From the IMG/VR virus record IMGVR_UViG_2529292981_000044: a DNA stretch of 2,817 nucleotides; one strand, written 5' to 3'. Made by a program: the position numbers and the translations under genes. Under the pieces are notes generated by a model. The model was not told the DNA's origin and searched no databases. It saw only the letters and a program-made list of their open reading frames with translations. Below are positions 1,002-2,817 of the stretch, piece after piece (position 1 is the stretch's first letter; each line of letters opens with the position of its first letter). The stretch is from a virus (Duplodnaviria; Heunggongvirae; Uroviricota; Caudoviricetes).

Positions 1002-1049
1002 TTAAATTTAGCTCTGTTAAAAATTTAATCCTTAACCGGAGGTATATCA

Positions 1050-1262
1050 ATGTCAAACGCACAGAAAGTTATTAACGCTGAAAAATATAACGAGTGGGTG
1101 AAAAAGTTCTCAGAGCAGATTTTTAAAATTACTGGCGACGAGAATGCGGCAAAAAATGAATTAGAGCCGTGGACACCTGAAGGTGTCGACCCAAATTATT
1201 GCTGGTGGGATGTTGATCCAGTTGATGCTGCAAATGAAGCTATGAGTTATCACAACGATTAA
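1050..1262 (+). CDS. Hypothetical small acidic protein, 70 aa, with a Trp-rich acidic C-terminal half
   Basis: ATG 1050 with GGAGG (1038-1042) at 7-nt spacing; stop TAA 1260-1262. About 14 Asp/Glu versus 6 Lys/Arg, with the tail EPWTPEGVDPNYCWWDVDPVDAANEAMSYHND. Same strand as its neighbours. No family recognised. Confidence 0.6.
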   Translation: MSNAQKVINAEKYNEWVKKFSEQIFKITGDENAAKNELEPWTPEGVDPNYCWWDVDPVDAANEAMSYHND

Positions 1263-1669: not shown

Positions 1670-2016
1670 TTAATCGTATCAAGCTGGAGCACATCCTCGA
1701 ATATGCCAGGCAGCAGAGGCATATTGGTCAGCATTGTAAAATTCCACCAGGAGATATGGTTGAAATCATGGAGATTGCCATGCGCAAGGCTGGCAACTCT
1801 CCGGTAACTCCGGATGGTTGGATAAGCTGTAGTGAGCGAATGCCGGAGAAATACGATTTCGATATCTGGGTATTCTCTCCATCCAGAGGTGTTCTTGACG
1901 GGCTACAGTGGGATGGCTCGATGTTTACTGATGATGAATATCAGTTCGTTATTCATGACGCCACGCATTGGATGAGAAAAGTATATCCAGCAGCACCGCA
2001 GCAGGATGGTGAATGA
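1666..2016 (+). CDS. Hypothetical prophage protein, 116 aa, with a DUF551-like C-terminal region
   Basis: ATG 1666 with AGGGAGA (1653-1659) 6 nt upstream, ATGA overlap with the upstream gene; stop TGA 2014-2016. The segment DGWISCSERMPEKYDFDIWVF...QWDG matches my recollection of the DUF551 signature (W-I-S-x-x-D/E-R-L/M-P-E followed by hydrophobic strands); family call from memory. Confidence 0.65.
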   Translation: MINRIKLEHILEYARQQRHIGQHCKIPPGDMVEIMEIAMRKAGNSPVTPDGWISCSERMPEKYDFDIWVFSPSRGVLDGLQWDGSMFTDDEYQFVIHDATHWMRKVYPAAPQQDGE

Positions 2017-2102
2017 TGCCGCCAGTTAAAGTTGTGATTATCACTTTGGTGATGATAGTGATTGCGAGAATCATGTCTGGTGAAATTGTGTGGATATGGT
2101 AA
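2013..2102 (+). CDS. Unannotated 29-codon hydrophobic small ORF (MMPPVKVVIITLVMIVIARIMSGEIVWIW); candidate leader peptide or small membrane/toxin-like peptide
   Basis: ATG-ATG at 2013-2018 overlaps the upstream stop (ATGA at 2013-2016), with AGGA (2003-2006) 6 nt upstream; in-frame to TAA 2100-2102. 13 of 29 residues are Val/Ile and only 1 is Leu. Below the apparent length cutoff of the ORF track. Coding status uncertain because the same bases form GTGAT repeats. Confidence 0.3.
   Translation: MMPPVKVVIITLVMIVIARIMSGEIVWIW
2034..2062. repeat. Cluster of GTGAT pentamers including a GTGAT-t-ATCAC palindrome; possible protein-binding site array
   Basis: GTGAT at 2034-2038, its inverted copy ATCAC at 2040-2044 (palindrome centred on T2039), and direct copies at 2049-2053 and 2058-2062; related GGTGA at 2008-2012 and 2079-2083. 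Read directly from the sequence. Confidence 0.3.
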
Positions 2103-2132
2103 TGGCTAAGGCAGCAGCAGAGCGCAACTAAC

Positions 2133-2160
2133 AATCCTCGCACTCGCGGGGATTTCTTTT
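2133..2160 (+). terminator. Intrinsic (rho-independent) terminator, first of a tandem pair
   Basis: Stem AATCCTCGC (2133-2141) / loop ACTC / GCGGGGATT (2146-2154), 9 bp with one G-U pair, immediately followed by the U-tract TTTCTTTT (2153-2160). Confidence 0.6.
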
Positions 2161-2165
2161 ATCTG

Positions 2166-2190
2166 AACTCGCTACGGCGAGTTTTGTTTT
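2166..2190 (+). terminator. Intrinsic terminator, second of the tandem pair, abutting the next gene's RBS
   Basis: Perfect 7-bp stem AACTCGC (2166-2172) / loop TACG / GCGAGTT (2177-2183), followed by TTTTGTTTT (2182-2190). GGAG of the downstream gene begins at 2193. Confidence 0.6.
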
Positions 2191-2203
2191 ATGGAGACAA
2201 GAA

Positions 2204-2548
2204 ATGTCAGATTTGGCTATGAAGGTTTTGAAATGGCAATCAACTGGCGATGTCGGCATCAGTAGCGCAACTCTTGCCTCAATCGCATGTGGCCTGAAAA
2301 AGAATATCTATGGTCATGGCTTCGGTGCTCCACATGACGCAGCCGATTTCAGACGATGCGTTGCACTTGTTGAGCAGATTCCAGAAATCAGAGATTCATT
2401 CGACAAGGTTGCAAAGCGCGTTCCGGCATTCAAAGGAATCCTCAACGAATGGGATTCCCTCGTTGCTCTGTTGAAGTCTGAAATGAAGATACACGGAAAC
2501 AAAGCACCAGAGACTTACAGAAGAATCAGCGAGCTACGCAAGGACTAA
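2204..2548 (+). CDS. Hypothetical protein, 114 aa, unknown function; terminator-insulated cargo (moron-like) gene
   Basis: ATG 2204 with GGAG (2193-2196) at 7-nt spacing; stop TAA 2546-2548. Preceded by tandem terminators and followed by hairpins and a U-tract. Translation MSDLAMKVLKWQSTGDVGISSATLASIACGLKKNIYGHGFGAPHDAADFRRC... matches no family I recognise. Confidence 0.7.
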   Translation: MSDLAMKVLKWQSTGDVGISSATLASIACGLKKNIYGHGFGAPHDAADFRRCVALVEQIPEIRDSFDKVAKRVPAFKGILNEWDSLVALLKSEMKIHGNKAPETYRRISELRKD

Positions 2549-2584
2549 CGCCTCACACTCGATGAGGCCTGTTCATATCTGATA

Positions 2585-2610
2585 GAGCCGCTATATGGCG
2601 GTTTCTTTTT
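2585..2610 (+). terminator. Probable intrinsic terminator downstream of the 114-aa gene, preceded by a second hairpin
   Basis: Stem CCGC (2588-2591) / GCGG (2598-2601), extendable by A-U and G-U pairs, running into TTTCTTTTT (2602-2610). A separate 6-bp hairpin GCCTCA (2550-2555) / TGAGGC (2563-2568) lies just upstream without a U-tract. Weaker than the 2133-2190 pair. Confidence 0.45.
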
Positions 2611-2625
2611 GCCTGGAGAATTAAG

Positions 2626-2817
2626 ATGACCGATACCAGCCTGATTCCTGAGAAAGAAGTGATGAACAAGCTCGGTGTTTCATCACGTCAGACAATCTGG
2701 AACTATACCAAACGGCACGGATTTCCGAAGCCAGTCAGAACCCACCCCAAATCATACCTTCGTGAAGCTGTTGAAGGGTGGATTCTTAACGGTGGCGTTA
2801 ATCAGAAATGCTCCTGA
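2626..2817 (+). CDS. AlpA/Xis-family excisionase-like helix-turn-helix protein, 63 aa (prophage CP4-57 AlpA-type regulator / excisionase family)
   Basis: ATG 2626 with GGAGA (2615-2619) at 6-nt spacing; stop TGA 2815-2817 is exactly the last triplet of the window. The segment EVMNKLGVSSRQTIWNYTKRHGFPKPVRTHPKSYLREAVEGWI has the layout of small phage excisionase/AlpA proteins (helix, Gly turn, recognition helix, then FPKP-type wing, then W-containing C-terminus). Family call from memory. Confidence 0.75.
   Translation: MTDTSLIPEKEVMNKLGVSSRQTIWNYTKRHGFPKPVRTHPKSYLREAVEGWILNGGVNQKCS

Follow-up and report, generated by a model that had tools for sequence, protein, structure and literature searches.

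The DNA analysed here, referred to as the window, is the whole 2,817-nucleotide stretch of the IMG/VR virus record IMGVR_UViG_2529292981_000044 (Caudoviricetes). All of its sizeable open reading frames are on the plus strand, and they comprise a DUF977 gene, three unknowns, a DUF551 gene, a gene for a 114-aa protein and a gene for a 63-aa AlpA-like protein. The present work is concerned with the two intergenic gaps that precede the last two genes. The features of this part of the window are the following.

2013..2102, plus strand: small ORF for a hydrophobic 29-aa peptide (MMPPVKVVIITLVMIVIARIMSGEIVWIW), read from the sequence; the last frame before T1
2129..2197, plus strand: conserved T1-T2-SD cassette, a joint between mosaic modules, recognized by similarity across phages
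2133..2162, plus strand: T1, predicted intrinsic terminator with stem-loop 2133-2154, from the fold compared with shuffles; homologue of lambda t3
2165..2192, plus strand: T2, predicted intrinsic terminator with stem-loop 2165-2184, from the fold compared with shuffles; homologue of lambda t4
2193..2548, plus strand: Shine-Dalgarno (SD) sequence GGAGA (2193-2197) and 114-aa gene (ATG 2204, stop 2546-2548), PHROG 1229
2550..2568, plus strand: hairpin without U-tract immediately 3' of the stop codon of the 114-aa gene (−8.7 kcal/mol, z −2.95)
2585..2610, plus strand: T3, predicted intrinsic terminator with stem-loop 2585-2604, just 5' of the excisionase-like gene and equivalent in position to lambda t5
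2615..2817, plus strand: SD sequence GGAGA (2615-2619) and 63-aa AlpA-like gene (ATG 2626, stop 2815-2817), putative excisionase

Genes and ribosome-binding sites

The start codon of the 29-aa ORF overlaps the stop codon of the DUF551 gene. The ORF is annotated as a gene in some finished O157 genomes (L017, L021, L022 and L024), and the peptide has no match in either Pfam or PHROG. The 114-aa gene keeps its start codon in a Salmonella homologue (MSDLA...), and a sequence search of the PDB with its product gave no meaningful match. Its family, PHROG 1229, is also present in phages 434, HK022 and Gally and in Salmonella P22-like phages. The preliminary description of this DNA had taken the gene for cargo; it is instead a resident gene that is widespread in the early-left operons of lambdoid phages. 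Its upstream neighbour in 434, HK022 and Gally is orf55, with only a ribosome-binding site between the two genes and not the spacer of the window. The hairpin at 2550-2568 is kept in these three phages and in Salmonella phage 118970_sal4.

The AlpA-like protein matches the Pfam AlpA family with an E value of 0.0032, which is below the Pfam cut-off, and PHROG 66, "excisionase and transcriptional regulator", with an E value of 1.9e-8. In the relatives discussed below, there is a 20-nt overlap between the 3' end of this gene and a convergent integrase gene.

Both genes start very close to an upstream U-tract. The T2 U-tract ends at 2190 and is followed by 2 nt before the SD at 2193, while the T3 U-tract ends at 2610 and is followed by 4 nt before the SD at 2615. 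These positions had already been given in the preliminary description, and they are exact on rereading.

The three hairpins

T1 has a 9-bp stem closed by the loop ACUC, with a folding energy of −13.1 kcal/mol (z −5.7), and its tail on the plus strand is UCUUUUAU. T2 has an 8-bp stem and a C(UACG)G loop, with an energy of −11.9 kcal/mol (z −3.95); its tail is UGUUUUAU, with the U-tract UUUUGUUUUAU. For both hairpins, a fold of the same stability was found in 0 of 200 shuffles. T3 also has an 8-bp stem, with four GC pairs and the tail CUUUUU ending at 2610, and its energy is −10.5 kcal/mol (z −1.75), a stability that was reached in 11 of 200 shuffles. Judged by its fold alone, T3 is thus weak and not better than the shuffles. 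The assignment is strengthened by the recurrence of a hairpin with a T-tract at the position just before xis in lambda (where it is t5), 434, HK022, Gally and 933W. The stems at this position differ between lambda, 434/HK022/Gally, 933W and the window, yet they all pair.

The minus-strand versions of T1, T2 and T3 have no T-tract. In the whole window, six terminator-like sites were found, compared with 2.7 ± 1.8 in shuffles, and the three best of them are all sense-oriented and all located within the two intergenic gaps. A scan of the whole window against Rfam, with E values up to 1, gave no match. The earlier claim of three terminators ahead of two genes is borne out by these results, with a conserved hairpin and U-tract on the sense strand at each position.

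Search for local promoters

The preliminary description had found no convincing sigma70 −35/−10 pair in 2017-2132, and our scans, which covered promoters of the sigma70-type consensus only, agree with this over a wider region. No sigma70-like consensus site was found on the plus strand between 1900 and 2630. In the position-weight scan, the best candidate with a −10 element ending within 1900-2203 scored 7.4 bits, and the best in 2400-2625 scored 5.65 bits, neither of them above chance: best scores in shuffled segments of 304 nt have a median of 8.5, and the candidate pL promoter of phage 2851 scores 11.4.

We have also considered whether the 114-aa gene resembles a moron. T3 starts 37 nt past its stop codon, as the downstream terminator of a moron would, and the sigma70-type scans gave no promoter above chance just 5' of the gene. 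Two other readings of the region around T3 were examined by eye. Neither a sigma54 promoter, for which the GG-N10-GC spacing does not fit, nor a CII-type TTGC-N6-TTGC motif could be fitted there.

Comparison with phage lambda

The 78 nt of the window that extend from the base of the T1 stem up to the start codon are 93.6% identical to positions 29283-29360 of lambda. The lambda copy of T1-T2 is flanked by ea8.5 and the predicted orf55, upstream of xis, and it coincides with terminators that have been predicted before: t3 and t4, with t5 following just before xis (Bloch et al. 2014, PLoS One 9:e108233, Table 4). It should be pointed out that t3-t5 are computational predictions made with ARNold (Bloch et al. 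2014, PLoS One 9:e108233); our literature search found no Term-seq, in vitro or other experimental 3'-end data for the window or for lambda's exo-xis region. On the basis of the alignment, we assign T1 and T2 as homologues of the predicted t3 and t4, and T3 corresponds to t5 by its position and type of stem. Like t5, it is placed directly 5' of the excisionase gene, and the two stems are similar (GCCGC.../...GCGG).

There are also differences between the two loci. The gene joined to the cassette is the 114-aa gene in the window and orf55 in lambda, the excisionase is AlpA-like in the former and Xis in the latter, the integrase gene is convergent in the relatives of the window, and the window, unlike lambda, has no CII-type TTGC-N6-TTGC motif of a pI promoter after T3.

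Distribution and variation of the cassette

The T1-T2-SD cassette was found in 316 phage records, among them lambda, 434, HK022, HK630, 933W, VT2-Sakai, Kapi1 and Gally. It also occurs in many P22-like Salmonella phages and in Gifsy-2, where it is part of a rightward operon. Among 5426 complete E. coli genomes, 2298 (42%) carry it, with up to six copies each; the K-12 prophage DLP12 has no copy. The identity among lambda, Stx, HK022 and P22-like phages is 90-100%. An integrase gene is situated within 2 kb downstream in 29 of the 32 instances that have at least 2.5 kb of downstream sequence, at a median distance of 422 nt, and it is co-oriented with the cassette in 26 of these 29 cases and convergent in three.

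The variation within the hairpins was analysed in a set of 119 IMG/VR instances, obtained with a search pattern in which only one T2 pair and the loop could vary. Pair 5 of T2 is U-A in 67 instances, U-G in 50 and C-G in two, and it is never a non-pair, while the loop is UACG in 115 of the 119. For pair 6 of T1, U-G is the form of most phages, with U-A in 434 and C-G in the instance L118. The T1 loop is variable, and at least three unrelated hairpins are found in the T1 slot, which is sometimes empty. The preserved pairing in T2, together with the exchange of hairpins in the T1 slot and before xis, provides evidence for selection on structure, and not on sequence alone, at the terminator position.

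The similarity among otherwise unrelated neighbours extends from the foot of the T1 stem to the GGAG of the SD. At least eight different genes begin after this common SD, including the lambda orf55 type (ca 80 instances), the 114-aa type (17), the 933W L0063 type (7) and several others, and every combination of T1 type, T2 allele and downstream gene was found. With these shared edges and all combinations present, the cassette behaves as a recombination joint between modules. The close spacing of SD and U-tract is then explained by T1-T2-SD being a shared linker; the spacing is inherited with the cassette and is not peculiar to this locus. Conserved boundary or linker sequences at the module junctions of mosaic lambdoid genomes have reportedly been described in the genome papers on HK97/HK022 and HK620. 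As in those cases, the similarity of the cassette is confined between exchangeable neighbours. Unlike those boundary sequences, the cassette is itself a predicted functional signal, a terminator pair with a ribosome-binding site, and not mere short homology.

The early-left operon of finished relatives

Positions 1407-2817 of the window are 99.9% identical to the Stx2-converting phages 1717 and 2851. Phage 2851 and ten finished O157:H7 chromosomes have a common gene order, with the T1-T3 block on the same strand as the operon. It starts with cI, N, ssb-like, cIII, kil, gam, bet, exo, DUF1317, DUF1382 and DksA-like, and it ends with Ea22, DUF551, the optional 29-aa ORF, T1-T2, the 114-aa gene, T3 and alpA, followed by the convergent integrase gene and sbcB. 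This gene order therefore places the T1-T3 block at the far end of the early-left (pL) operon.

In phage 2851 (L001), a candidate pL promoter, TTGACC-17-TACTAT, is present. It is followed by a boxA-like sequence, GCTCTTTAAACAA, at about 8035 and a boxB-like hairpin, UGGCU-GAAA-AGCCA, at 8066-8079 (−7.1 kcal/mol, z −2.8), with the ATG of the N gene at 8106. We take this pair of elements to be a nutL-like site from a comparison with the consensus sequences. The N gene matches PF25694 with an E value of 2.3e-32. The nutL-like site and N are located ca 6.7 kb upstream of the T1-T3 block in the finished relatives, and N_peptide genes were found in nine of the ten finished O157 contexts, the exception (L020) having an IS element at that position. 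Over the ca 7-kb operon of phage 2851, there are 20 terminator-like sites in all, compared with 10.0 ± 3.1 in shuffles, and all nine sites with at least eight pairs are on the sense strand.

The left half of the window and its join

The left part of the window has a different origin. Positions 1-1845 are 99.8% identical to another kind of O157 prophage, in which DUF1627-DUF977-...-DUF551 follow the replication genes in a rightward operon, and in the prophages that carry this left half no N-family gene was called. The two parents have in common a near-identical repeat of 439 bp (1407-1845), and SNPs map the switch between them to 1448-1554.

None of the 5426 finished E. coli genomes spans the join according to a BLAST search of the junction, and a junction-specific pattern did not find it in the set of species-representative genomes. 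Look-ups of exact proteins returned the two parental contexts only. One IMG/VR contig of 5.5 kb (L026) does span the join; it is identical to the window from position 352 on and has the same last base, but its left end is of a different variant. The left half of the window (1 to about 1450) and the 2.7 kb upstream of it in L026, which carry the YdaT, O-like and P-like genes, are a rightward replication module (YdaT, O-like, P-like, DUF1627 and DUF977). No N gene and no nut site is present in either the window or L026. The T1-T3 block is thus downstream of nutL in 1717/2851 and the ten finished O157 chromosomes, whereas a pR-type module is upstream of it in the window and L026.

The join is probably either a short-read mis-assembly or a rare recombinant between prophages, and we prefer the option that the window may be an assembly chimera. 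The coordinates of T1-T3 are unaffected by this, as the block is wholly within the 2851-like part. The join does have consequences for another suggestion of the preliminary description, namely that nut-like signals should be sought upstream of the window. A nutL-like site is indeed found in the finished relatives, but the upstream DNA of L026 has none, and such signals may not precede the contig of the window. They are not expected there, because the left half is a pR-type module from the other type of prophage.

Probable expression by read-through

N, P22 gp24 or HK022 put render RNA polymerase resistant to terminators. Soon after induction of lambdoid phages, transcription from pL covers the exo-xis region (PMC9239242; PMC4195576). 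P22 gp24 antiterminates the early operons, and terminators inside operons are known from these phages (PMC8022706). According to Zaworski et al., the roles of the latter "are not known", and the stopping of unmodified polymerase or partial termination were offered as possibilities (PMC8022706). In lambda, mRNA levels drop past predicted intra-operon terminators even in lytic growth (Bloch et al., PMC4195576), which means that read-through is incomplete in that phage.

Like the pL operon of lambda with its N/nut system (tL1, tL2a-d, tL3), the early-left operon of the relatives is studded with sense-strand intrinsic terminators, and it has an N gene and a boxA/boxB site just downstream of pL. 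Lambda, 434, HK022, 933W and P22-like phages share the T1-T2 cassette with the window. In the window itself, unlike at the lambda locus, N, nutL and pL are absent, and the linkage to them is made through the 99.9%-identical finished genomes.

Read-through is favoured here by the lack of a local promoter, the position in the pL operon, the presence of N and a nutL-like site in the relatives, and the homology to lambda t3-t5. We consider it likely, from this comparative evidence, that the 114-aa gene and the AlpA-like gene are expressed by antiterminated polymerase arriving from a distant pL. The explanation as a whole, in which T1, T2 and T3 are genuine Rho-independent terminators, as predicted, embedded at the far end of a lambdoid pL operon, one or two genes ahead of excisionase and integrase, is in our judgement a probable one. 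The preliminary description had proposed such antitermination from a distant lambdoid pL. Homology, synteny and the N gene and nutL-like site of the relatives speak for it, while the pR-type module that is upstream in the window does not fit.

The course of events would be as follows. Transcription would start at pL after inactivation of the repressor, and N would modify the polymerase at nutL, ca 6.7 kb upstream of the block in the finished relatives, making it terminator-resistant. By homology, the modified polymerase should pass all of the intra-operon terminators, T1-T3 included. The 114-aa gene and alpA would have no promoters of their own and be served only by this polymerase. Unmodified polymerase coming from stray or internal promoters downstream of nutL would halt at T1, T2 or T3, which would keep the excisionase silent in the lysogen. 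Partial termination at T1-T3 could possibly also trim the level of excisionase after induction. The T1-T2-SD linker, finally, would be a site at which lambdoid phages swap modules by homologous recombination.

Alternative explanations

One option is that the hairpins are mainly partial terminators, i.e. attenuators, which create a falling gradient of expression towards xis/int, with transcripts leaking through without any dedicated antitermination. The lower mRNA level of lambda past a predicted intra-operon terminator in lytic growth (Bloch et al., PMC4195576) would fit this, partial termination is among the two possible roles named by Zaworski et al. (PMC8022706), and T3 is indeed a modest hairpin. 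However, T1 and T2 are strong and in tandem, with good U-tracts, and the finished relatives have an N gene and a nutL-like site. With three terminators in series after about six more upstream, almost nothing would be left of the transcript without antitermination, and we find this option improbable. A similarly low probability is given to the scenario in which the join is real, so that the polymerase arriving at the block would not be N-modified. The block would then be situated behind a rightward replication operon without N, and the two genes would be transcriptionally stranded remnants of recombination between prophages. It is consistent with the 99.8% identity of positions 1-1845 to O157 prophages without an N-family match, with L026 sharing the join in spite of its different left-end variant, and with a crossover at 1448-1554, inside the 439-bp repeat. 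On the other hand, the join is present neither in the 5426 complete E. coli genomes nor in the species-representative set, both contigs are short and end at the same base, as expected of short-read assemblies of O157 strains with several prophages, and a mis-join across the repeat accounts for the observations equally well. The least probable of the alternatives, for which we see very little room, is an unrecognized promoter (activator-dependent, with an alternative sigma factor or with a poor consensus) in 2103-2203 or in the small ORF, which would make the 114-aa gene moron-like. T3 downstream of the gene is what a moron would have, and the scans were limited to the sigma70-type consensus. 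But a transcription start could evade T2 only within the 2 nt between U-tract and SD, which leaves practically no place for it; the best position-weight scores are under the shuffled median; and 434, HK022 and Gally have orf55 and a ribosome-binding site before the 114-aa gene where the window has the spacer.

A further possibility concerns the RNA itself. T1-T2 could yield a stable Hfq-binding small RNA (sRNA), formed as the 3' end of early-left transcripts after termination or processing and regulatory like lambda PreS/LPR1. Two hairpins, each followed by a U-rich stretch, are the typical 3' architecture of Hfq-dependent sRNAs, and there is a precedent for a pL-operon terminator that doubles as an sRNA 3' end (bioRxiv 10.1101/2024.10.31.621285). 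Like the terminator of PreS/LPR1 at tL2a, which many phages and prophages share with more than 90% identity (Silverman et al., bioRxiv 2024), the cassette is strongly conserved across very different phages, and this reading, if true, would account for its retention at 90-100% identity and for its presence in 42% of complete E. coli genomes. The conservation begins at the T1 stem, however, and in contrast to PreS/LPR1 there is no conserved promoter and no conserved sequence 5' of T1 able to act as a seed. The T1 loop varies, and T1 is swapped for unrelated hairpins or is missing, which indicates a purely structural constraint. Moreover, no Rfam family matches, and the RIL-seq study on lambda mentions LPR1, LPR2 and 6S in its main text but neither ea8.5 nor xis. 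None of the known phage sRNAs considered corresponds to T1-T2: PreS/LPR1 is at tL2a, and AgvB/AsxR/EcOnc and the Pas sRNAs are near the late/lysis region. At the Sp5 copy (1,248,220-1,248,288), no peak is listed in the Hfq-CRAC data of strain Sakai, which is uninformative because the cells were uninduced and sites less than 100 bp from a CDS were excluded. We regard the sRNA as very unlikely, and equally so its corollary, an abundant RNA of ca 60-90 nt with two hairpins and stretches rich in U, which would appear after induction and bind Hfq, acting in trans or titrating it.

Conclusions

Read-through by antiterminated polymerase remains our preferred explanation. The layout of T1-T3 is that of textbook lambdoid N-type antitermination, with the same hairpins already predicted in lambda as t3, t4 and t5, and in this sense it is already known. 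The window, which is probably a mis-joined or recombinant contig, is a warning against reading operon logic from short prophage contigs.

Few non-coding elements of lambdoid prophages in enterobacteria are as widespread as the terminator-pair-plus-SD cassette. Located just before the excision and integration genes, it behaves as a recombination joint for the exchange of modules. Irrespective of the type of excisionase, a terminator is maintained directly before its gene, and this suggests selection that ties excision strictly to antiterminated, i.e. induced, transcription.

The window fuses two prophage types, its left part deriving from a rightward replication operon and its right part from a Stx2c-type early-left (pL) operon. 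The junction lies within a 439-bp near-identical repeat (1407-1845), and the crossover can be placed at 1448-1554. The same join is present in the sibling IMG/VR contig L026, and it was found in none of 5426 finished E. coli genomes. The join probably reflects either chimeric assembly or a rare recombination event.

Besides the tandem terminators T1-T2, the following elements were considered.

1022-1050, minus strand: predicted sigma70-like site, TTGATA-17-TAAATT, 11.7 bits
1272-1289: GC hairpin GCCGCCC-GAAA-GGGCGGU with a GAAA tetraloop, -16.9 kcal/mol, z -4.0
2013-2102, plus strand: 29-aa ORF, very hydrophobic (MMPPVKVVIITLVMIVIARIMSGEIVWIW)
2079->2052, minus strand: weak sigma70-like site, CAGACA-16-TATCAT, antisense within the 29-aa ORF
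2550-2568: hairpin GCCUCAC-ACUC-G-UGAGGC without a U-tract, directly 3' of the stop codon of the 114-aa gene

The site at 1022-1050 has the highest sigma70-like score in the window and equals the reference pL in quality. It occupies the AT-rich spacer that separates the 138-aa ORF from the 70-aa ORF, and its direction is antisense to the upstream genes.

The very stable hairpin at 1272-1289 sits between the 70-aa and 123-aa ORFs. It has neither a U-tract nor an upstream boxA; it resembles boxB, but a role as a nut site is unsupported. The hairpin at 2550-2568 is conserved: 434, HK022, Gally and Salmonella phage 118970_sal4 also have it 3' of the homologous gene. One mosaic breakpoint falls just past it, at the end of the mEp235 match (2500-2576).

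The ATG of the 29-aa ORF overlaps the stop codon of DUF551, and some finished O157 genomes have the ORF annotated as a gene. It may encode a small membrane peptide or belong to a type I toxin-like arrangement.

In the Stx2 phages 2851 and 1717, and in the O157 prophage at sbcB, int is convergent to the pL operon, and its coding sequence shares 20 nt with the 3' end of alpA, the putative excisionase gene (window 2798-2817 and beyond; 15392-16570 in phage 2851). Antiterminated pL transcription would therefore enter int antisense, and int transcripts would likewise continue into alpA in the antisense direction. Within 2550-2800, the minus strand shows no good terminator.

Finally, a diverged T1-T2 pair is found in Gifsy-2-like Salmonella prophages (Gifsy-2 itself, 1169-1270, and the loci L052 and L108), with the sequence GAACCCGC.../GCGGGTT, in which the covarying pair is C-G. 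This copy is placed in the rightward operon, 5' of dinI, which means that the T1-T2 cassette is not confined to early-left operons but occurs beyond them.
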